A stretch of 64,000 nucleotides of DNA from an uncultured Bifidobacteriaceae bacterium (GTDB lineage: Bacteria > Actinomycetota > Acidimicrobiia > IMCC26256 > PALSA-555), in the NCBI GenBank assembly GCA_964555735.1, contig CAZKTS010000288.1, positions 1,069 through 65,068 on the forward strand, written 5' to 3'. Shown piece by piece: positions 24,745 through 52,981 of the stretch. The notes below the pieces were generated by a model. That model was given only the letters and a program-made list of their open reading frames with translations. It was not told the origin of the DNA and searched no databases. Each line of letters opens with the position of its first letter. Within the stretch, counting starts at the first letter, position 1. Both the position numbers and the translations under genes were made by a program.

Positions 24745-24868
24745 GCGCCTCGCTGCCGCGCCTTTGGGCCCCGGGCACCCTAGCCCCCACGGGGCGCCCA
24801 AAAGCGCGCCTACGGGGCGCCCACGCGGGCTCCCGGGGTGCTCCGGGGCCGTGGGGTCACTGGGGCCC
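24745..24868 (+). repeat. composite intergenic repeat, copy B
   Basis: Contains the identical 17-mer GGGCACCCTAGCCCCCA (24773-24789), AAAGCGCGCCTACGGGG (24801-24817), and ACGGGGCGCCCA twice (24789-24800 and 24812-24823). Confidence 0.75.
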
Positions 24869-40566: not shown

Positions 40567-40790
40567 TCGCCGCGCTGGCGCGCCTTCGAGTGGTCGCCCA
40601 CCCCTGACCCGCCCGCCCGGGCAAAGCGCGCCTACGGGGCTCCTACGGGCCCCGGGCGCCAATGGGCCTAATCGCCTCGCTGGCGCGTCGGGCGAGGCTG
40701 GGGCACCTAGCACCCGTCCGGCGCCCAAAAGCGCGCCTACGGGGCGCCTGTGCGGCCCGGCGGGCGGTCTTGGCCCTGGGGCGAGGGGAA
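40558..40790 (+). repeat. composite intergenic repeat, copy C (double)
   Basis: Contains CCTAATCGCC.CGCTGGCGCG twice (~40563 and ~40667), AAAGCGCGCCTACGGGG twice (40623-40639 and 40728-40744) and GGGCACCTAGCACCCG (40701-40716). Confidence 0.75.
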
Positions 40791-41423: not shown

Positions 41424-42890
41424 ATGGCTGTGCGGGTGCGTGCGACGCTGGAGCTAGCCCTGGCTGACGTGCCGGCGGAGCTGGTGGACGCGCTGCGCGC
41501 GGAGTTCACGGTCGCGAACCCGGTTCGCGCGAAGCTGGAGGCGATGGGGCGGCGCAACCGTGCGATGGCGTGGCGCGCGGCGAAGACGCCGGCTGAGCTG
41601 CGGTTCTGGCGCGAGGCGGGGGGTGTGCTGCATCTACCGCGGGGCGCGGTGTCGCGAGTGCGGCGGGTGGCGGAGGCGCACGGGGTGCGGCTGACGTGGC
41701 GCGATGAGCGGGAGGCGGGCGGGGACTTCTACGCGCGTGCGATCGCGCATCGCCCGGCGAGTCGCGAGGCGGATGGTGGGGCGCTGCGGTGGTATCAGAC
41801 CGAGGCGATTGCGCGGGCGATGGATCGGCAGTGCGGGATCATTCGCGCGCCGACGGGGTCGGGCAAGACGACGATCGCGCTGGGGCTGGTGGCGGCGGTT
41901 CGGGTGCCTACGCTGGTCGTGGTGTGGTCGGGCGCGCTATTCGACCAGTGGGTGCAGCGACTGCGCGATGAGTTGGGGCTGCGCGCCGATGAGATTGGGC
42001 GATACGGTGCGGGGCATGATCAGGTGCGGCCGGTGACGGTGGCGATGCAACAGAAGCTCTGGCGCGGCATGTCGCGGGACTTCGTCGCGCGGTGGGGGAT
42101 GGTGGTGATCGATGAGGTGCAGCGCGCGCCGGCGCGCACGTTCGCCGAGGTGGTGGGCCAGATCCCGGCGAAGTACCGGATCGGGATCAGCGCAGACGAG
42201 ACGCGACCCGATGGGCTGGAGGCGGTGACGTACGACGTGTTCGGGCCGCTGGTGTACGAGGTGTCGCGCGATGACTTGATCGCGGACGGCAGCGTGCGCG
42301 ACGTGGAGATCCGGGTGGTGCCGACGGAGTTTCGCGCGGACTGGTATCGCGATCAGCTAGCGCGGCGGCAGATCCCAGACATCAAGCGGTTGCTCGATGA
42401 GATGGAGGCGGACGACGCGCGCAACGAGCTAGTGGCCGAGGTGATGCAGGGCGAGGTGCGCGAGGGCCGGCAGGTGGCGATGGTGGCGTCGCGGGTCGCG
42501 ATCTGTCGGCGGGTAGATGCGGCGTTGGCGGCGCGGCGGGTGGGGTCGGGCGTGGCGGTGGGCGAGGACGGCGCTGCGGCGGGCGAGGCGATCGCGCGGT
42601 TGAAGTCGGGCGAGCTGCGCGCGTTGTGCGCGAGCATCCAGCTATTCGGAACGGGCGTGGACGTGCCGGCGTTGTCGCGCGGCGTGCTGGCGACTCCGAT
42701 CGGGTCGAATCGCCAGCTGTTCGGCCAGGTGCGCGGGCGGCTGTCGCGACCTGGTGAGCCGGCGGTGCTCTATGTGCTGTGGGATCGACACGTCTACAGC
42801 GCGAACATGCTGCGGCGGCTGGAGGCGTGGAATCGGCGCGTGTTGGTGCGCGTCGGTGGTGGCTGGGTCGATGCGAGTGAGGTGGAGTAA
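41424..42890 (+). CDS. SF2 DEAD/DEAH-box (DExH) helicase, type III restriction Res-like/XPB-like
   Basis: WYQTEAI (Q), RAPTGSGKTT (I), VIDEVQRAP (II), SADETR (III), GTGVDVP (V), QVRGRLSR (VI). Confidence 0.85.
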   Translation: MAVRVRATLELALADVPAELVDALRAEFTVANPVRAKLEAMGRRNRAMAWRAAKTPAELRFWREAGGVLHLPRGAVSRVRRVAEAHGVRLTWRDEREAGGDFYARAIAHRPASREADGGALRWYQTEAIARAMDRQCGIIRAPTGSGKTTIALGLVAAVRVPTLVVVWSGALFDQWVQRLRDELGLRADEIGRYGAGHDQVRPVTVAMQQKLWRGMSRDFVARWGMVVIDEVQRAPARTFAEVVGQIPAKYRIGISADETRPDGLEAVTYDVFGPLVYEVSRDDLIADGSVRDVEIRVVPTEFRADWYRDQLARRQIPDIKRLLDEMEADDARNELVAEVMQGEVREGRQVAMVASRVAICRRVDAALAARRVGSGVAVGEDGAAAGEAIARLKSGELRALCASIQLFGTGVDVPALSRGVLATPIGSNRQLFGQVRGRLSRPGEPAVLYVLWDRHVYSANMLRRLEAWNRRVLVRVGGGWVDASEVE

Positions 42891-43138
42891 TGGCGAAGGT
42901 CCGTGTGGTGGTGACGCGAGGTGAAGAGGTTTACGCGCCGGTGAGTTATCACTCTTTCCGAGTGGGGCCGCTCTCGGTGACGTTCGAGTGCGAGTCGGAC
43001 ATGGTCGGTCCGATGGCGGAGGAGTGGACGGAGGCGCTTCGCCGGCTGAGCGACACGGTCTATGCCGATGAGCTGCGGCTGCATCTGGAGCGGGTGAAGA
43101 CTGCAGCGGCGGCGGCGCGTGCGAGCCAGCGCGCATGA
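42890..43138 (+). CDS. hypothetical protein (82 aa)
   Basis: TAATG overlap with the helicase stop. High GC3. Confidence 0.5.
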   Translation: MAKVRVVVTRGEEVYAPVSYHSFRVGPLSVTFECESDMVGPMAEEWTEALRRLSDTVYADELRLHLERVKTAAAAARASQRA

Positions 43139-43626
43139 GTCGGCGGCTGAGGTACGCCGAGCACGAGGCGGCGGCGGCCAAGCTGGCGGCGATGGTGACG
43201 GCGCGGCCGGCGGCCAAGCGGCGCGTGATCACACGGGCGCGCGCGGCGCAGGACTTGGAGCGCGCGATCGAGGCTCGCGACTATGCGAGCCTGCGGCCGA
43301 CGCATCTGGTCGCGTTGTGGGCGCGGTGCCATGGGCAGGTGTACGGGGTCGCGCCGGCGGAGCTGGACGCGGCCTCGTGGCGAGGCGCGGCGTTTGCGGC
43401 GGCGCGGCTGGTCAGGGGTGAGTTCGGCGGGTCGATGGAGGCGGCGGTGGAGTTCCTGCGGTGGACGTGGCGGCGGGAGCAGTGGCGCGAGGACAAGGCG
43501 CGCGAGGAGCGCAACGCGCGGGTGGGGCGCATCGGCTGGCGGCTGCAGTTCGTGGCGCGTCACTTGCTGACGGACTATCGGCTCGACCGGGCGCGGCGCC
43601 GGTTGCCGATCGGGGCGAAGCCGTGA
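43135..43626 (+). CDS. hypothetical protein (163 aa)
   Basis: ATGA overlap. High GC3. Confidence 0.55.
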   Translation: MSRRLRYAEHEAAAAKLAAMVTARPAAKRRVITRARAAQDLERAIEARDYASLRPTHLVALWARCHGQVYGVAPAELDAASWRGAAFAAARLVRGEFGGSMEAAVEFLRWTWRREQWREDKAREERNARVGRIGWRLQFVARHLLTDYRLDRARRRLPIGAKP

Positions 43627-43817
43627 GTCGCAAGGACCGAGTGATGTTGGCGGCGTGGGTGTCACCCGAGGTGCGCGAGGTCGCGCGGGTGGAAGCCGCG
43701 GCGGCGTGTATGGAGTTCTCGCGGTGGGTCGAGTGGGCGGTGAGGCGCGCATTCGCTGAGGAGGTTTCGCGGCAGGTGTTGCGGGATGACGCGGAGAAGG
43801 ACGCGGCGGGTCGATGA
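43623..43817 (+). CDS. ribbon-helix-helix (CopG/Arc-like) protein (64 aa)
   Basis: GTGA overlap. KDRVMLAAWVSPEVREVARVEAAAACMEFSRWVEWAVRRAF shows a beta-alpha-alpha pattern. Confidence 0.55.
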   Translation: MSRKDRVMLAAWVSPEVREVARVEAAAACMEFSRWVEWAVRRAFAEEVSRQVLRDDAEKDAAGR

Positions 43818-43848
43818 CGTGCAAGGAGTGCCACGGGTGCCGACTGGT
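43744..43848 (+). repeat. direct repeat copy 1 (~105 bp) flanking the DUF2829 gene
   Basis: 62 nt (43744-43805) are identical to 44177-44238. The next ~43 nt differ at about 6 positions. Confidence 0.85.
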
Positions 43849-43894
43849 GACGTGCAAGTTCTCACAGACAGAGGAGAGGGTTAATCATGGCTGA
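43814..43894 (+). pseudogene. truncated 5' copy (26 codons) of the zinc-ribbon gene at 44247
   Basis: MTCKECHGCRLV then diverges, compared with MMCKECHGCRLVGWSG at 44247. It lies in copy 1 of the ~105-bp direct repeat. Confidence 0.5.
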
Positions 43895-44162
43895 TTTCTC
43901 ATGGGCGTTGGCGGAGCTGAGGGCAGGGCGGCTGGTAGCTCGGGAGGGGTGGAACGGGAAGGGCCAGTGGCTCGCGCTCCCGAGGGCGTATCCGCGCGGC
44001 ATTCCGATCGACAAGAACACGGCTGAGGCGACGGGGATCCCCGAGGGGACGGTCTGCAGGTTCTTGCCGTACATCATCGTGCGGACGGTCGATGGGGCTT
44101 TCGTGCCGTGGCAGGCGTCGCAGACGGACGTGATGGCTGAGGACTGGGCGGCGCCCCCATGA
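43887..44162 (+). CDS. DUF2829-family protein (Tad2-like candidate anti-Thoeris nucleotide sponge)
   Basis: FSWALAELRAGRLVAREGWNGKGQWL ... LPYIIVRTVDGAFVPWQASQTDVMAEDW matches the DUF2829 hallmarks (A...lk.Gk.v.R.gW.gkg ... pW..SqtDllAeDW). GGAGAGG RBS. GC is lower than in the neighbours. Confidence 0.85.
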   Translation: MADFSWALAELRAGRLVAREGWNGKGQWLALPRAYPRGIPIDKNTAEATGIPEGTVCRFLPYIIVRTVDGAFVPWQASQTDVMAEDWAAPP

Positions 44163-44176
44163 GGCGCGTTCCGCCC

Positions 44177-44281
44177 GGCGCGCATTCGCTGAGGAGGTTT
44201 CGCGGCAGGTGTTGCGGGATGACGCGGAGAAGGACGCGCGCGGCCGATGATGTGTAAGGAGTGCCACGGGTGCCGACTGGT
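44177..44281 (+). repeat. direct repeat copy 2 (~105 bp) flanking the DUF2829 gene
   Basis: Duplicate of the RHH gene's 3' end plus the zinc-ribbon gene's 5' end. Confidence 0.85.
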
Positions 44282-44747
44282 CGGCTGGAGCGGGGCGGGG
44301 CCGCACTTCTGCCGCGCGTGCTCGCGAGAGGTGACGCTGCTCGAAGCGTTCGAGGTCATCACGGCGGCATGGCGTGAGCAGCGCTCTCGTGCCGAGCGAG
44401 CCGAGCACGCGAGGGATGAGGCGGCAGCGTGGCTGCTGACGATCGCGGAGATGACCAGCGACTACATGAAGGCGGTCGTGCTCGCGAAGCAGGCGCTGCG
44501 CGGGCGCTCGCCGAGTGCGCGGCTGCTTGCGCGGGTACAGGCCGGGGATGCTCTTTCTCACAGCCCGGAGGACGAGAGACTCGTGGCCGCCCGGGTAGCC
44601 GAGGTCATGGGTGGCGAGAAGCCAAGGCCGCTCAATAGTCGTGCGTGGGAGGAGCGAGCCGTGCGGGCCGAGGCTCGGTGTGCCGAGTATGAAGCTCGGC
44701 TGCAGCAGGTGCATGATGCGATTGAGCGACTCAGGGGTGACTCGTGA
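44247..44747 (+). CDS. zinc-ribbon + coiled-coil protein (166 aa)
   Basis: CKECHGC...FCRAC at the N-terminus, with a helical charged remainder. Confidence 0.55.
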   Translation: MMCKECHGCRLVGWSGAGPHFCRACSREVTLLEAFEVITAAWREQRSRAERAEHARDEAAAWLLTIAEMTSDYMKAVVLAKQALRGRSPSARLLARVQAGDALSHSPEDERLVAARVAEVMGGEKPRPLNSRAWEERAVRAEARCAEYEARLQQVHDAIERLRGDS

Positions 44748-45046
44748 GAGTGAAACCCACTGACCCAAGGTGGACCGTGAGCGGGATTGGCGTCTTGACG
44801 CCGCGTCAGGCGCTGGAGATTGGGCTTGCGCGCGACGAGCACAATTGCAGGACGTGGACCCGCGCGAGTGGCGTTGCTCAGCTGTCGCATATCGTGACGG
44901 ACTGTGCCGTGCGAGTCGTGCAGGTCCAGCGATTCCGCGCCTCTGGGTCCGCGACACGCGGCGATCGCGTGATGATGGGGCGGGCACTGCGCACTCTCAA
45001 TGTCGCGGTCGATCTGTGGACCGAGTCGACGGGGCGGACGCCATGA
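44744..45046 (+). CDS. hypothetical protein (100 aa)
   Basis: GTGA overlap. Somewhat lower GC3. Confidence 0.4.
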   Translation: MRVKPTDPRWTVSGIGVLTPRQALEIGLARDEHNCRTWTRASGVAQLSHIVTDCAVRVVQVQRFRASGSATRGDRVMMGRALRTLNVAVDLWTESTGRTP

Positions 45047-45279
45047 GCGTGACGCTGCGGACGTTGCGGGTAGAGCGCCCGGACTGGGCGTGGACGGCCG
45101 AGCGCGCGGGGATGGGGTGGCGATATGTTGGAGCACGCGGAGGGCGGCAGGTGGTGGTTTTCGCGTGTGCGCGGCTGATCGGCGAGGATGAGTTTGCGAC
45201 GGAGTGGCGTGTGGATGATGGAGCCATCTCGCGGTCTTATGTGTCGTGGTGGCTGGAGTGCGAGGCGCGGTCGGCATGA
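45043..45279 (+). CDS. hypothetical protein (78 aa)
   Basis: ATGA overlaps at both ends. Confidence 0.5.
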   Translation: MSVTLRTLRVERPDWAWTAERAGMGWRYVGARGGRQVVVFACARLIGEDEFATEWRVDDGAISRSYVSWWLECEARSA

Positions 45280-46748
45280 TGCGGCGGCGCGTGGGGTCTG
45301 GTGAGCGGGCGGCGCCTGCGGCGGTGCAGATCCCGCACGACGTCGTCAACGAGCAGGCGGTGCTGGTCGCGGCGTTGGCGGACGCCGATGTTCGGCGCAA
45401 GCTGACGCTGCAGATCAAGCCGGACGAGTTTGTGGTCCGCGAGCACGGTGTCTTGTGGATCGCGCTCGGCGAGGTGGCGAAGCGCCGGCTGGAGCCGGAC
45501 CTCGCGACGCTGCAGCAGCTGACGGGTGATGAGAAGTCGGCGCGGTATGCGATCGAGCTGGCGGGCGCGTTGGGTGCGCCGGCGAACCTTGACCATCATG
45601 TCACGGCGATGCGGTGGGATCGCGCGCGCGTTGAGGCGTCGACGGGGCCGCTGGCGCAGCTGATCGAGCTATTGCGCGACCCGCAGACGGAGCCGGCGCG
45701 GGTGCAATCGGTGGCTGGGCAGCTGGCGGAGGTGTTTCGGCGCGGTGCGGCGCATGAGCTACTGCGCGACCCGCAGGCGTTGTCGGCGGCGACACGGGCG
45801 GAGCGGGCGAGGCGCCGCGAGCGGGCGGTGTACCCGTACGGGATCGATGGGCTCGACTACACGGAGGACGGGGCGGTGCGAGTGATGCCCGGGTGTGCGC
45901 CGGGCAAGGTGACGGTGGTGACGGGCGTTCCGGGTTCGGGCAAGACCACGGTGGCGGCGCAGATGGCGCTAGGGCAGCTGCGTGCTGGGCGGACGGTGCT
46001 CTATGGCGCGTGGGAGATCGGGGCCGAGGCGGCGCTGGAGATGCTGGCGACGCTGTCGGTTGGGCAGTCGCGCTCGAAGGTTCTGGCGGCTGGGATCACG
46101 GCGGAGGAAGAGCGCGAGATCGAAGCCGAGGAGGAGCGGCTGCAGGCCGATCGCCGGCTGTATTTCGTGGGGCGCCCGAAGCGGGTGGTGGGGTCGCACA
46201 CGGCGCGCGGAGTGAGTGCGCACAACCTGCGAGCGTTGGAGGCGGTGCACGCGGCGATCGTGGAGACGGGTGCGGAGGTTTTCGTGGCCGACTTGTGGAA
46301 GCGCATGCTGACGGAGACGCGGCCCGAGGACGAAGAGGCGGCGTTCGAGGTGCAGCAGGACGTGTGTCAGCAGACGGGGTGCCACGGGCTGCTGCTGCAG
46401 CAACAGCGATTCAAGGACATCGAGTCGCGGCCCGACAAGCGGCCGACGCGCGAGGGGATCAAGGGATCGGGCACGTATGTCGAGGTCGCGGATGTGATCG
46501 TCGGCGTGCACCGCCCGGCGCTGTGGAAGAATATCGCGGACGACACGCTGGAGCTGATCTTGCTGAAGCAGCGATGGGGCGGGCGGGCGACGGCGATCGA
46601 GTTCGATTGGCACGGCGACACGGCGTCACTCGCGAACCCGCGCGAAGTACCGCTCGACGATGGCGTGCGAGGGCATGACGACGCGGACGACTTTCTGGCG
46701 CCGCGGGTGGGCAGCCCGAAGCGCGCGCGCAAGGGTGCGGGGCGGTAG
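45276..46748 (+). CDS. dnaB: DnaB-family replicative helicase
   Basis: The N-terminus PHDVVNEQAVLVAALAD is a DnaB_N-type pattern. Walker A is TGVPGSGKTT. RecA-like core (VFVADLW, LLLQQQRF, REGIKGSGTYVEVADVIVGVHRP). Confidence 0.85.
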   Translation: MMRRRVGSGERAAPAAVQIPHDVVNEQAVLVAALADADVRRKLTLQIKPDEFVVREHGVLWIALGEVAKRRLEPDLATLQQLTGDEKSARYAIELAGALGAPANLDHHVTAMRWDRARVEASTGPLAQLIELLRDPQTEPARVQSVAGQLAEVFRRGAAHELLRDPQALSAATRAERARRRERAVYPYGIDGLDYTEDGAVRVMPGCAPGKVTVVTGVPGSGKTTVAAQMALGQLRAGRTVLYGAWEIGAEAALEMLATLSVGQSRSKVLAAGITAEEEREIEAEEERLQADRRLYFVGRPKRVVGSHTARGVSAHNLRALEAVHAAIVETGAEVFVADLWKRMLTETRPEDEEAAFEVQQDVCQQTGCHGLLLQQQRFKDIESRPDKRPTREGIKGSGTYVEVADVIVGVHRPALWKNIADDTLELILLKQRWGGRATAIEFDWHGDTASLANPREVPLDDGVRGHDDADDFLAPRVGSPKRARKGAGR

Positions 46749-47674
46749 TGGTCGTCGATGTACCGCGGCTGTTGGAGGCGCTGGGCATCGCGCAGGGCAA
46801 GGCGCGCAACGCGCGCGAGGTGTGGTGCTTGTGTCCGGCGCACGTCGATCGGTCGCCGAGCTGGTCGATCGACCTGAAGGACGGCAAGCACTTCTGCTTT
46901 GCGTGCTCGTTCGGGGGCGGCCCGCTCGATCTGGTGATGCACGCGCGGAAGCTGACGCGCGGCGAGGCGGCGCAGTGGGTCCGCGATTCGGGCCTGGCGC
47001 TCGATTCGGCGACGCTGCCGGAGACGCGCGTGGTGTTGCGGGTGGGCTCGCTCGATCGGTTCGTGATGCCCGCCGAGGTGCAGATGGCCGAGCCGTGGCC
47101 GGCGGAGGCGCAGGCGTACGCTGAGCGGCGCGGCATCACCCGCGAGCAGATCGAGCGGTGGGGGATCGGGTACGCGGCGACGGGTCGCTTGGCCAAGCGG
47201 CTGGTGATCCCGATCGTCGATTGGCTGGGGCGGCTGTCGGGCTACACGGCGCGGACGTGGTCCACCTCGCCGGTGCGCTACTTGACCCCGAGCGAGGCTG
47301 AGCACCCGCGGCGGGAGGTGCTGTTCGGTGAGCGGCACTGGTTCGCGATCGGCGCGGAGGTCGTGGTGGTGACGGAGGGGGCGATCGATGCGTTGGCGGT
47401 CGAGCGCGCGTGTGAGGGGCGCTTCGCGGTGGCGGCGCTGAGCGGTGCGAGCAATTCGCGATCGAGGCTGGTGCAGGCGAAGCTGGCGCGATTTGGCTGC
47501 GTGGTGCTGGCGACCGATGTGGATTCGGCGGGAGACGCCGCGGCGGCCGGGTTGCGGGTGGCGCTCGCGCGGCACACTCACGTCGTCCGGCTGCGATACC
47601 CGGCGGGCGTTGACGCGGCTGGTATGGATCGGGCAGGCTTGGCAGAGTTGATCGTGGACGCGGTGAGCCGATGA
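46748..47674 (+). CDS. dnaG: DnaG-type DNA primase (CHC2 zinc finger + TOPRIM)
   Basis: CLCPAHVDRSPSWSIDLKDGKHFCFAC is a CHC2 finger. VVVTEGAIDALAV ... LATDVDSAGD is TOPRIM. Confidence 0.85.
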   Translation: MVVDVPRLLEALGIAQGKARNAREVWCLCPAHVDRSPSWSIDLKDGKHFCFACSFGGGPLDLVMHARKLTRGEAAQWVRDSGLALDSATLPETRVVLRVGSLDRFVMPAEVQMAEPWPAEAQAYAERRGITREQIERWGIGYAATGRLAKRLVIPIVDWLGRLSGYTARTWSTSPVRYLTPSEAEHPRREVLFGERHWFAIGAEVVVVTEGAIDALAVERACEGRFAVAALSGASNSRSRLVQAKLARFGCVVLATDVDSAGDAAAAGLRVALARHTHVVRLRYPAGVDAAGMDRAGLAELIVDAVSR

Positions 47675-50444: not shown

Positions 50445-52981
50445 TCGAGGCGCTCAACGCCTGGTCAGAGCATGACGGGCGGGTGTACTACGCCGCGCGC
50501 GATGCGGACGGCCGGGTACGAGTGCACGACGCGGGGCGGGTCGTGTACTCGTACCTCCGCGGTGACAGTGACCCTGAGCTGATTCGCGAGATCGAGCGGT
50601 CGCGGGTGCTGCGTGCGGTGGAGCGCGCAGGCGACTGGTGGCGCCTGCACTGGTCCGCGCCGTGGGCGCGCGATGCGGCGTGCGGGCCTGACGGGTGGTT
50701 CGCGTCGAAGCGAGTGCCGACGTTCGAGGCTGATCTGCCGGCGGTGCGGCAGTGGGCGATCGAGCGCGACGTGCAGGTGCAGCGGCCGCGCCTCTGCTAT
50801 TTCGACATCGAGACGGACGCGCGCGCTGGGATCGCCAACAAGGAGCGCATGCGCATCCTGTGCTGGACGGTGCAGAGCGCCGACGGTGAGCGCGTGCAGA
50901 GCGGCATGCTGGAGGCTGACACGGATGCGGCGGAGCGCGACTTGCTGCGCGCGTTGTGGCGCGAGTTCGATCGGTACGATCAGGTCGCGGCGTGGTACGG
51001 CGACGGCTTCGACTTCCCGGTGGTGTTTGCGCGCAGTAAGCGCGCGGGTATCTCGGTCGACGCGCGGCGGTGGCTGTGGCTGGACCACCTTGAGGTGTTC
51101 CGCCGGATGAATATCTCGTCGTCTGAGAGTGGCGAGGAGAAGCAGTCGCTGGCGCTGCAGGCGATTGCGATGGCGGTGCTCGGTGAGGGCAAGCTGCCGG
51201 GGTTCGGGTACGCCGAGATTTACCGCGCGTGGGCGGCGGGCGGCGATGACCGCGATCGGCTGCTCGCGTACAACGTGCGCGACGTCGACTTGATGCGGCG
51301 GGTTGAGGACCGGACGGGTTACATCGAACTGCTCTTCACGCTGTGCGCGACCACGGGCGTCTTCCCTGATACTCGCGGGATCCGGCCGATGCCGCAGGTC
51401 GAGACGTACGTGCAGCGGCTGGCCAACGCGCGCGGCGACCGCCTGCCGACGCAGTATCGGGGTGGGGATGAGAGCAAGTATCGCGGCGCGTATGTGATGG
51501 AGCCGCGGCGTACGGGGCTGATCCGTGACCGCGTGCACGTCTGCGACTTCGGCTCGATGTATCCGAGCATTGTGCAGACCTGGAATATCTCGCCGGAGAT
51601 GATCGTGGAGAAGCCGCCCGAGCCGGTGTTCCCCGCGTATCTGTCGCACCTTGCGGCTGAGTGGAAGCCGCCGCCGCGGCCGGCTGAGTACGCCGAGGCG
51701 CCGAAGACGCGCGTGTGGTTCCGCCAGGCGGAGCGCGGGCTGCTACCGCGCGCGCTCGATGCGCTGGGCGCGCTGCGTGCGCAGTGGCAGGCGCGCAAGG
51801 CGGAGCTGCCGCCTAACACGCCGGAGTGGCGTGACGCGGACGCGCGAGCGACCGCGTACAAGATCAACGCCAACAGTTTTCCGGGTGTGATCGGCGCGTC
51901 GGTGTCGCGGCTCTATTCGCGCGAGGCGGCCGAGAGCGTGAGCACAACGGGGGCGTGGCTGCTGGAGCAGGTCGACCGTGCGGCGCGCGAGCACGCCGGG
52001 CTCGATCCGTTCTACGGCGACACGGATTCCAGCATGGTCGCTGGCTGTAGTGATGAGACTTTCGCGGCGTTCGTCGCGTGGTGCAACGGCGATCTGCTGC
52101 CGCGGTTGGCGCGCGAGCAAGGTTGCGCGGGCGCGTGCACGCTGAAGCTGGCGTACGAAAAGGCGTTCGAGCGGATGCTCTTGCTGAGCGCGAAGCGGTA
52201 CATCGCGCGGCTGGCGCACTACAAGGGGCAGGCGCCGACGGCGGCGACGAAGCCGGAGATCAAGGGGATCGAATACAAGCGCGGCGACTCGCTGCGCCTC
52301 ACGCGGCAGATGCAGGCGATCGTGATCGACCTCATGATGGGCGGCGGGCTGGTGCGACCGCGCCAGGAGCGGTGCGAAGACGCTGAGGAGACGTATGTGG
52401 CGCTAGTCGAGGCGTGGCGCGACCTCGTGCTGACGGGCCCGCTGGAGCTGGCCGACGTGGTGCGGTCGCAGCGGCTGACGCAGCCGCTGAAGGCGTACGC
52501 GGGCAAGGTCAAGCTCGATGGGACCGAGAGCGGCGGCATGCCGCATGTCCGGGTGGCGCGGGTGCTGGCTGAGCGCGGTGAGGCGATCGGGGTCGGGGCG
52601 CGCGTGGAGTACGTGGTGGTCGATGGCTCGGTGAGCCCGGCGGAGGTGATCCCGGCGTCGGACTGGACCGGCGAGTGCGACCGCTTCGCGCTGTGGGAGT
52701 CGGCGGTCTGGCCGCCGACCCGGCGATTGCTGGAGTCGGCGTTTCCGGCGGGCCCGTGGGCGCGGTACGACCGGGTCCGGCCGAGCAAGCGCCGGCCGGC
52801 GGCGCACGCCGACAAGCTGCCGCTGTTCGAGGCGCCCACGCGCCGCGCCAAGGCGCCGGCGCGCCCGGCCGCCCCAATGCCCCAGGCGGCGCCCGAAAGC
52901 GCGCCTACGGGGCTCCCAGGCGGCCAGATCGGGCTCTTCGGGGCGGCGACCGCTGCTCGGCGCGGCAGGAGGCGCGGGTGA
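50441..52981 (+). CDS. family B DNA polymerase with 3'-5' exonuclease domain and C-terminal clamp-binding-like motif
   Basis: Exo I YFDIETD, Exo II LAYNVRDVDL, motif A CDFGSMYPSIV, motif B KINANSFPGV, motif C YGDTDS. The C-terminal QIGLF lies at nt 52925-52939. Confidence 0.95.
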   Translation: MIEALNAWSEHDGRVYYAARDADGRVRVHDAGRVVYSYLRGDSDPELIREIERSRVLRAVERAGDWWRLHWSAPWARDAACGPDGWFASKRVPTFEADLPAVRQWAIERDVQVQRPRLCYFDIETDARAGIANKERMRILCWTVQSADGERVQSGMLEADTDAAERDLLRALWREFDRYDQVAAWYGDGFDFPVVFARSKRAGISVDARRWLWLDHLEVFRRMNISSSESGEEKQSLALQAIAMAVLGEGKLPGFGYAEIYRAWAAGGDDRDRLLAYNVRDVDLMRRVEDRTGYIELLFTLCATTGVFPDTRGIRPMPQVETYVQRLANARGDRLPTQYRGGDESKYRGAYVMEPRRTGLIRDRVHVCDFGSMYPSIVQTWNISPEMIVEKPPEPVFPAYLSHLAAEWKPPPRPAEYAEAPKTRVWFRQAERGLLPRALDALGALRAQWQARKAELPPNTPEWRDADARATAYKINANSFPGVIGASVSRLYSREAAESVSTTGAWLLEQVDRAAREHAGLDPFYGDTDSSMVAGCSDETFAAFVAWCNGDLLPRLAREQGCAGACTLKLAYEKAFERMLLLSAKRYIARLAHYKGQAPTAATKPEIKGIEYKRGDSLRLTRQMQAIVIDLMMGGGLVRPRQERCEDAEETYVALVEAWRDLVLTGPLELADVVRSQRLTQPLKAYAGKVKLDGTESGGMPHVRVARVLAERGEAIGVGARVEYVVVDGSVSPAEVIPASDWTGECDRFALWESAVWPPTRRLLESAFPAGPWARYDRVRPSKRRPAAHADKLPLFEAPTRRAKAPARPAAPMPQAAPESAPTGLPGGQIGLFGAATAARRGRRRG
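52899..52912 (+). repeat. 14-mer core GCGCGCCTACGGGG inside the DNA polymerase 3' end
   Basis: Exact copy. The flanks (GAAAGCGCGCCTACGGGGCTCC) match the first core of copy C. It encodes PESAPTGLPG just before QIGLF. Confidence 0.7.

Follow-up and report, generated by a model that had tools for sequence, protein, structure and literature searches.

A tad2-like gene between two copies of a duplicated gene junction in the replication module of an uncultured GC-rich phage

The 64,000-nucleotide (nt) stretch of contig CAZKTS010000288.1 (assembly GCA_964555735.1) analyzed here, referred to in full as the window, is part of a tailed-phage genome of roughly 83 kb and 71% GC. The GC content is about 71% throughout the window, nearly all long open reading frames (ORFs) lie on the + strand, and no tRNA genes are present. 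The replication module is ordered as helicase, 82-amino acid (aa) gene, 163-aa gene, variable block, DnaB, primase, and PolB. The variable block holds the subject of this study, a gene for a 91-aa Tad2-like protein that is situated between two copies of a 105-nt direct repeat. Each copy of the repeat is composed of the final 74 nt of an upstream small gene, including its TGA stop codon, and the initial 35 nt of a 166-aa zinc-ribbon-like gene, the two overlapping in an ATGA, such that the whole junction between these genes is duplicated. The features of the region are collected in Table 1.

Table 1. Features of the replication module around the tad2-like gene, in window coordinates.
Feature	Coordinates	Strand	Description
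DEAD/ResIII helicase	41424-42890		
82-aa gene	42890-43138		
163-aa gene	43135-43626		
Upstream small gene ('RHH')	43626-43817	+	63 codons from GTG 43626, or 57 from ATG 43644; TGA overlaps next ATG (ATGA)
Repeat copy 1	43744-43848	+	Completes upstream gene and begins truncated zinc-ribbon-like gene; divergent positions in right part, 43806-43822
Truncated zinc-ribbon-like copy	43814-43894	+	26 codons; MTCKECHGCRLV plus 14 unrelated residues; without second CxxC; stop overlaps tad2-like start
Cassette leader	43849-43886	+	38 nt, 50% GC; carries Shine-Dalgarno stretch GAGGAGAGGG
tad2-like gene	43887-44162	+	91 codons/aa, DUF2829/PF11195; predicted sponge for TIR-derived ADP-ribose (ADPR) signals
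32-codon ORF	44159-44257	+	ATG overlaps tad2 stop (ATGA); terminates 11 nt inside intact 166-aa gene
Spacer, tad2 stop to repeat copy 2	44163-44176	+	14 nt
Repeat copy 2	44177-44281	+	Startless 3' remnant of upstream gene (44177-44250) plus true start of intact zinc-ribbon-like gene
Intact zinc-ribbon-like gene	44247-44747	+	166 aa; N-terminal CxxCxxC...CxxC followed by helical region
100-aa gene	44744-45046		
78-aa gene	45043-45279		
DnaB	45246 or 45276 to 46748		
Primase	46748-47674		

The two repeat copies are 94% identical (99 of 105 bases) with a start-to-start spacing of 433 nt. The first 62 nt match exactly, as do the last 26 nt, and the six mismatches are located at 43806, 43807, 43808, 43811, 43818, and 43822; in a gapped alignment, three of them resolve into a 1-nt shift. 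Because this is the sole long high-identity direct repeat in the 64 kb, in which the other repeat families are 65–81% identical, chance can be excluded as its origin. The initial annotation of this DNA, made from the sequence alone, had described near-identical repeats of about 105 bp, with 62 nt exact, that bracket a DUF2829 gene, along with a 26-codon truncated copy of the zinc-ribbon gene that runs into the DUF2829 start. Both features are present as described, and the truncated copy overlaps the 91-codon ORF by 8 nt. The 32-codon ORF that begins at the end of the tad2-like gene is in a frame different from that of the upstream-gene remnant in copy 2 and may serve as a translational relay.

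Assignment of the 91-aa protein to DUF2829/Tad2 was likewise upheld by profile and structure comparison. The protein scores 79.6 bits against Pfam PF11195 (Tad2-like, formerly DUF2829; cut-off 25, E 2.6e-22, profile positions 2–71 of 73), and it matches two PHROGs of unknown function, including phrog_1048 at 2.2e-25. In a phmmer search against PDB sequences, the significant matches are solely Tad2 proteins, all spanning residues 3–88, with E-values of about 4e-12 for MoTad2 (8v3e/9eib), 1.3e-11 for HgmTad2/AcrIIA7 (8kbi), 7e-10 for a 158-aa AcrIIA7 entry, 3e-9 for SptTad2 (8wjd), and 6e-8 for SPO1 Tad2 (8sme); identity to the solved members is 28–36%. An AlphaFold2 monomer model built with 42 homologues has a mean predicted local distance difference test score of 90.3 and consists of a helix (residues 4–12), two strands, a second helix (43–49), two further strands, a short helix (79–83), and a final strand. 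A Foldseek search of this model against the PDB returned Tad2 chains for all of the 24 best matches (probability 1.0, template modeling score 0.63–0.72), while the next match had an E-value of 1.5. Profile, sequence similarity, predicted fold, and the pocket residues discussed below thus identify the protein as a bona fide member of the Tad2 family, as judged from sequence and model.

The structures of Tad2 proteins bound to 1''-3' glycocyclic ADPR (gcADPR) define the residues that contact the ligand. The pocket of SPO1 Tad2 is formed by W25, N26, W73, and D79 together with S76 and T78 (10.1101/2023.05.01.538930), and that of HgmTad2 by W21, N22, G23, W87, S90, T92, and D93; binding is lost in the HgmTad2 mutants W21A/N22A and S90A/T92A/D93A (PMC10680739). 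Residues W22, N23, G24, W75, S78, T80, and D81 of the 91-aa protein align to these positions. The 42 homologues show no variation at W22, N23, G24, W75, and D81 and hardly any at S78 and T80 (at least 90% conserved). HgmTad2 contains a second pocket, for cyclic dinucleotides, that is built on a long β2–β5 insertion with R31, K46/S47, F70, and N85 (PMC10680739). Little of this second pocket is found here: the 10-residue stretch that carries K46/S47 is deleted, R31 and N85 are without counterparts, and F70 corresponds to F59. The fold and the ADPR-type pocket of the 91-aa protein can be considered established; a tetrameric assembly, the nature of the ligand, and an anti-Thoeris activity are predicted by analogy.

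Most likely, on the strength of this analogy, the protein would work like the characterized Tad2 proteins. It would form a homotetramer in which pockets between the subunits sequester the ADPR-derived signal made by TIR proteins (3'cADPR or a related molecule), and with the signal sequestered, the Thoeris effector would never be activated. A Tad2-fold sponge could instead be directed at a target other than Thoeris, namely the cyclic dinucleotides of CBASS or the cyclic CMP or cyclic UMP of Pycsar, or could act as an AcrIIA7-like anti-CRISPR protein. Inhibition of CBASS, of Pycsar, and of Thoeris of types I, II, and IV is indeed known among Tad2 homologues, and one homologue often blocks more than one of these systems (PMC12393519; 10.1101/2024.01.03.573942), and HgmTad2 was first reported as AcrIIA7, although inhibition of Cas9 by HgmTad2 was not reproduced (PMC10680739). 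Such a target is nonetheless unlikely for the protein described here, which keeps all of the ADPR-type pocket residues and in which, of the elements of the cyclic-dinucleotide pocket, F70 alone is retained, with R31, S47, N85, and the long insertion absent or unaligned.

The history of the locus is illuminated by a close relative in which the tad2-like gene is missing. A homologue search with the 166-aa protein covered 5.8 billion proteins; two other homologues of this protein were found, and one of the upstream small protein. The relative is represented by two metagenomic contigs, L012 (SRR32919013, 904 nt) and L019 (SRR32919002, 1690 nt), that overlap by 150 identical nt and together carry, in order, the 3' end of the helicase gene, the 82-aa gene, the 163-aa gene, the small gene, the zinc-ribbon-like gene, and the 100-aa gene. 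In 100-nt bins over 42139–43638, the composite is mostly 95–100% identical to the window, and the divergence between the two phages is roughly 2%. Beyond these bins, seven mismatches are concentrated in a short diverged patch at 43678–43710. For the bin that covers the junction (43739–44271), removal of 43806–44238 from the window leaves 99 of 100 positions identical. Hence, a single unit of exactly 433 nt is all that the relative lacks at this position, and the predicted empty site, in which the upstream gene is followed directly by the zinc-ribbon gene, does exist. The uninterrupted junction in a near-identical genome indicates a recent recombinational gain or loss at this position, in line with the recent recombination that had been proposed from the repeats. 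Copy 2 is the ortholog of the junction in the relative, which carries the copy-2 base at 6 of the 6 positions that distinguish the copies.

The empty site by itself is neutral as to direction. It is possible, though on balance doubtful, that the cassette predates the split of the two phage lineages and was lost from the relative between the repeats, such that the empty site is secondary: the exact 62-nt repeat is a good substrate for deletion, and a crossover within it would combine the left part of copy 1 with the right part of copy 2, which yields the junction of the relative. The truncated zinc-ribbon-like gene and the startless remnant of the upstream gene, however, show that the flanked state is itself derived, at some point, from an uninterrupted junction, and the cassette is present in 0 of about 25 more distant relatives. 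An early acquisition with later loss would in any case alter only the timing of events and not the nature of the element.

Inspection of the mismatches between the copies reveals that copy 1 is a mosaic. All six fall within 17 nt of the 105-nt repeat, an arrangement with a simulated probability of about 2e-4 under uniform decay. The clustering, together with the match of the relative to copy 2, points to copy 2 as the resident sequence and to a more diverged source for the right part of copy 1, which most simply arrived together with the cassette. The novel joints on either side of the cassette each retain a short stutter. The left joint reads …CCGACTGGT on one side and GACGTGCAAGTTCTC… on the other, and the string TGACGTGCAAG, which makes up codons 1–4 at the start of the copy-1 zinc-ribbon-like gene (43815), recurs 33 nt downstream (43848–43858) and nowhere else in the window. 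At the right joint, the tad2 stop codon lies within TGAGGCGCG (44160–44168), a string also found ahead of copy 1 (43741–43749); these are two of its four occurrences in the 64 kb. If a 14-nt insertion, TTCCGCCCGGCGCG, is allowed, the repeat may extend leftward as far as the tad2 stop. Short stutters of this kind are the typical trace of microhomology-mediated joining, and they speak against site-specific insertion.

The stutters at both joints (TGACGTGCAAG at 43815 and 43848; TGAGGCGCG/GGCGCG at 43741 and at 44160/44177) would also be produced if sister genomes broken 105 nt apart had been joined in a single event with capture of a foreign fragment, by end-joining or by microhomology-dependent template switching. 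We consider such an in situ repair unlikely given that its two copies should begin as identical sequences, yet copy 1 contains six differences in 17 nt (the copy-1 junction variants being …GCGGCGGGTCGATGACGTGCAAGG…) while its other 88 nt are identical to copy 2. This local mismatch density is far above the roughly 2% divergence of the phages and points to a different source for the copy-1 stretch. Insertion as a site-specific mobile cassette (integron, insertion sequence or transposon, or homing endonuclease) was also considered and rejected. No terminal inverted repeats were found at the cassette ends, and neither a structured element nor an attC-like site or small RNA was found in the repeats (folding relative to shuffled sequences, z -0.36 and +0.83; no Rfam match); the cassette encodes only the 91-aa protein and no recombinase, and the duplicated 105 nt are coding sequence.

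Since the duplication is read from assembled sequence, its physical reality must be considered. Proteins encoded in this region have been recorded both on one NCBI contig (83,345 nt) and in many Logan assemblies. Every Logan contig with the 163-aa gene (L014–L017) stops at window position 43773, and every one with the 166-aa gene (L006–L011) begins at 44209, that is, 30 nt (k-1, with k = 31) within the ends of the exact repeat stretch, in a pattern common to about 10 sequencing runs of the SRR130765xx series. Breaks at these positions are those of a k = 31 de Bruijn graph at a repeat with two left and two right contexts. Provided that no edges other than these two branches lead into the repeat, a genome with the cassette would have to read upstream, repeat, cassette, repeat, downstream. 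The cassette unitig was not recovered from the Logan assemblies, and we therefore infer the threading through the repeat. A misthreading of two co-occurring strains, in which no real genome has both copies, is highly improbable. It would account for the record of the exact Tad2 protein from the single NCBI contig of 83,345 nt (an exact look-up of the protein on contigs had none on record, which left no independent contig to be read through the cassette), and short-read graphs are ambiguous at repeats. However, the graph branches at both repeat ends in about 10 independent Logan assemblies, and the branch that enters at 43744 requires a second left context, which is supplied by the 3' end of the cassette.

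The composition and expression signals of the cassette were also analyzed. According to the initial annotation, the cassette looks like a recent moron insertion or an exchange by recombination, with its own ribosome-binding site (RBS) and with visibly lower GC than its flanks. The RBS is confirmed as the Shine-Dalgarno stretch at 43871–43880, 6 nt ahead of the tad2-like ATG. Lower GC is a property of the 38-nt leader (50%), which is the only AT-richer part of the cassette and the source of the dips in the 100-nt GC profile, and does not extend to the coding sequence. The latter has a GC content of 0.674 and a third-position GC (GC3) of 0.848, compared with GC/GC3 values of 0.681/0.778, 0.657/0.752, and 0.659/0.771 for the 166-aa, 100-aa, and 82-aa genes, respectively; with GC like that of its neighbors (0.657–0.681), a foreign composition of the tad2-like coding sequence was rejected. 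The leader is unique within the window and is unrelated to the sequences on either side of the nearest Tad2 homologues.

A scan of the + strand over 42800–45400, limited to the sigma-70-type consensus, found zero sigma-70-like promoters, and zero terminator-like sites were found in the same interval, in which only 14 nt separate the tad2 stop from copy 2. Open reading frames are instead chained by overlapping stop and start codons: the upstream gene is linked to the truncated gene by an ATGA, the truncated gene to tad2 by the 8-nt overlap, and tad2 to the 32-codon ORF by a further ATGA. With neither a promoter nor a terminator of its own detected, the gene does not appear to be an autonomous moron, and the strict use of that label is not supported for a gene that has a 38-nt leader and is tied by overlaps into the operon. 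The tad2-like gene is probably expressed within the early/replication operon. The duplication would have preserved the translation-initiation contexts for all partners, which may be translationally coupled.

We consider that the 433-nt unit in the replication module is best explained as a recombination scar around a tad2-like sponge gene, and assign this explanation as a whole a probability of roughly 75%. The unit consists of the tad2-like gene, the 38-nt leader, and one junction copy. Of the two junction copies around the gene, copy 1 is a hybrid: 62 nt identical to copy 2, followed by 43 nt with six clustered changes, which would have been imported alongside the cassette. Homologous recombination inside the 62-nt stretch could have generated this arrangement by any of three routes, namely a double crossover with a cassette-bearing diverged relative in which the junction copies acted as homology arms, a single crossover of a circularized unit within the 62 identical nt, or an illegitimate join anchored by homology. 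The observations do not distinguish among these three, and both pathway and polarity remain proposals. At all three genes, upstream, incoming, and intact downstream, the duplicated junction would keep the RBS context and the overlapping stop/start link; because the whole junction is duplicated, a promoter-less gene can ride in the early/replication operon. Recombination between the repeats would permit clean loss of the unit, leaving a junction exactly as in the relative.

Several points weigh against this explanation. Loss of a cassette within the 62-nt stretch would leave the identical junction in the relative, so insertion in the lineage of the window is not proven. No donor turned up: the nearest Tad2 homologues are 73–75% identical, and the two inspected loci, L020 and L022, share the gene alone and neither leader nor flanks. 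The cassette copy number and any coexisting empty alleles in the same samples are not readable from short-read graphs, and the promoter scan was limited to a sigma-70-type consensus. The Tad2 family is functionally diverse (PMC12393519), so the ligand of the 91-aa protein is not fixed by its sequence; the anti-Thoeris role is a prediction.

A more dynamic version of a recombination scar can be envisaged, in which the 433-nt unit is a recombinase-free cassette mobilized by recombination, or is expanded by unequal crossing-over into a tandem array that tunes the dose of a stoichiometric anti-defense sponge in the manner of a 'gene accordion'. Recombination between the flanks could excise the unit as a small circle and restore a perfect junction, and a single crossover in the 62 nt could insert it into relatives that share the junction. 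The hybrid copy 1 and the exact empty site fit such a cycle, and the short-read graphs are compatible with zero, one, or several copies. No observation positively supports mobilization or tunable dosage, and we regard this version as quite improbable.

The genes that flank the cassette are small and poorly characterized, and the names 'RHH' (ribbon-helix-helix) and 'zinc ribbon' given to them in the initial annotation have no significant profile support in the window proteins. For the upstream small gene, the start chosen by the gene caller is 43644, and the counterpart in the relative is a 57-aa protein (P0128) of 89% identity. Its 31 remote homologues share the consensus MSHKDGRVVLSAWVxPVLRDYAREAAxxAGxEFSRWVERAVQQAV, which looks like a strand-helix-helix. 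Weak Pfam matches were obtained among 30 family members, to CcdA in 6 (best E 0.008) and to RHH_6 in one (7.8e-4); neither Pfam nor PHROG profiles match the window protein, and no match was found for the family profile against PDB sequences. A shallow AlphaFold2 model of the upstream protein (two sequences) is a single long helix. An RHH identity is thus plausible, but no more than that. The 166-aa protein could be placed in no Pfam or PHROG family; an identical protein (P0001) is found on nine contigs, and the 128-aa version of the relative is 73% identical. In a search for further junction-bearing relatives, IMG/VR gave no match to DnaB or to the products of the two genes on either side of the cassette (upstream small and zinc-ribbon-like), and JGI metagenomes gave none to the upstream small protein; in GTDB genomes, the zinc-ribbon-like protein has only a 30% identical, coiled-coil-like match in a Thiodiazotropha metagenome-assembled genome.

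Several remote homologues of the upstream gene (P0130, P0131, P0132, P0138, and P0147) continue into a C-terminal …RGECxxCG… motif. As read from these sequences, two functions encoded by separate, overlapping genes here appear to be fused in other phages, in which case the parts separated by the cassette probably cooperate. In L013 (60–140), from a more distant phage, a short ORF ending in …ERLAAWVAATPEVCREW lies ahead of a zinc-ribbon-like homologue (48 residues aligned at 77% identity). The similarity of this ORF to the upstream small gene is confined to the N-terminus of the latter, which hints at a third arrangement of the junction.

Two further differences between the window and the relative are located downstream of the junction. 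The first is a patch at 44872–45071, where the 100-aa gene ends and the 78-aa gene begins, that is 81–86% identical to L012 in a region otherwise 96–100% identical, and that represents a further short recombination patch. The second is the absence from the zinc-ribbon-like gene of the relative of 114 nt (38 codons, in frame; window 44412–44524, L012 at about 300), which gives a protein of 128 rather than 166 aa and shows that its central part can vary or be dispensed with. This phage lineage evidently recombines often, in short patches, with diverged partners.

At a larger scale, the block 43626–45279 is a lineage-specific variable region. A DNA search with 42800–45300 against 50,697 GenBank phage records gave no match, and PolB finds only about 25% identical proteins among the same records, in haloarchaeal and T4-like phages. 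The backbone of helicase, 82-aa gene, 163-aa gene, DnaB, and primase is kept, with protein identities of 24–58%, in 5 loci from IMG/VR and about 20 from JGI/ENA metagenomes. In these approximately 25 distant relatives, the 163-aa gene and DnaB lie about 0 to 2.1 kb apart, and the interval holds a dCMP deaminase in one (L029, 9162–9623), a Dam-type DNA methyltransferase in another (L030, 9876–10520), a 617-aa FG-GAP repeat protein in a third (L033, 8690–10543), and small unknown ORFs or nothing in the others. The small upstream gene, the zinc-ribbon-like gene, and tad2 are present in none of them. An anti-defense hotspot had been proposed at the junction itself. Only filled and empty states were found there, with no other cargo, and the hotspot label is too strong for it; variability is evident only at the scale of the whole interval from the 163-aa gene to DnaB.

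Elsewhere in the window, four copies of an element of about 100 nt (24745–24849, 40607–40655, 40672–40776, and 52840–52944) are located where genes meet or close by, two of them in tandem 105 nt apart. The copies are 68–76% identical with an invariant core, AAAGCGCGCCTACGGGGC, preceded by CTAAnCGCCnCGC, and may represent a phage-specific regulatory element. Upstream of the replication module, at about 38.5–39.2 kb of the window (L014, 3427–4020), a GGACT/AIG2-like gene of the γ-glutamyl cyclotransferase family lies beside a UvrD-type helicase gene, and is unusual for a phage.

With this locus, the Tad2 family gains a well-supported member from an uncultured phage lineage that is very rich in GC, has a genome of about 83 kb, and lacks a close sequenced isolate. 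With filled and empty alleles in genomes that are roughly 98% identical, it offers an unusually clean snapshot of the movement of an anti-defense gene, and the recombination scar, with its hybrid repeat and the stutters at both joints, is still legible. Duplication of a junction is one way of slotting a promoter-less gene into a tightly coupled operon while leaving the neighbors undisturbed, and the repeat flanks predict easy loss or amplification of the tad2-like gene. Both the family and the kind of evolutionary situation were known beforehand, and current knowledge of Tad2 and of phage mosaicism is unchanged; the locus is a good example and not a new principle.

Bracketing by a duplicated junction is not a general property of tad2 loci and was rejected as such, given that a survey of 82 other Tad2-like loci by self-comparison identified flanking direct repeats in only one, and these are of a different kind. 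In that locus (L102, 21–3411; IMGVR_UViG_3300046009_006793), a segment of roughly 650 nt, with a 138-aa gene and the 3' end of a convergent tail-fiber-like gene, is duplicated at about 91% identity. The tad2 homologue, with a 22-nt leader, lies between these two genes in the second copy only, such that a filled and an empty site occur on one contig; either the tandem duplication is real, or the assembly has placed two strains one after the other.

The arrangement in the window resembles several known systems. In homology-facilitated illegitimate recombination and in Campbell-type single crossovers, one stretch of homology is left as direct repeats around the insert, and the hybrid copy 1, with 62 identical nt and a diverged right end, conforms to this expectation; the difference is that no donor, circle, or recombinase is observed here, and that the pathway is deduced from the scar. 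Copy-number changes of an anti-host-defense gene are known from the K3L 'gene accordion' of poxviruses. A repeat-flanked anti-defense gene could likewise expand and contract by unequal recombination, and dosage should matter for a stoichiometric sponge, although nothing here indicates a second copy, poxviruses are a different type of virus, and the parallel is a pure possibility. Phage morons and other accessory-gene indels at gene boundaries are familiar from lambdoid phages and mycobacteriophages, following the concept of Juhala and Hendrix. Like them, the tad2-like gene is a single extra gene between conserved genes and is precisely absent from a near-identical relative; unlike classical morons, which have their own promoter and terminator, it has neither that could be detected, and it retains a 105-nt duplication of the target junction that is rarely kept in those cases.

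The closest comparison is with the Tad2 proteins themselves (SPO1 Gp34.65, MoTad2, HgmTad2/AcrIIA7, and SptTad2). The protein described here differs from them in its origin from an uncultured phage of 71% GC, in having nearest database homologues that are 73–75% identical, in a function that is predicted from sequence and model, and, relative to HgmTad2, in the absence of the long insertion and of the second-pocket residues R31, S47, and N85. It shares with them a length of about 90 aa, the fold of α1 and an antiparallel sheet in the model, an encoding gene located among phage early/replication genes, and the W-N-G and W-x-x-S-x-T-D residues that contact gcADPR in SPO1 Tad2 and HgmTad2.

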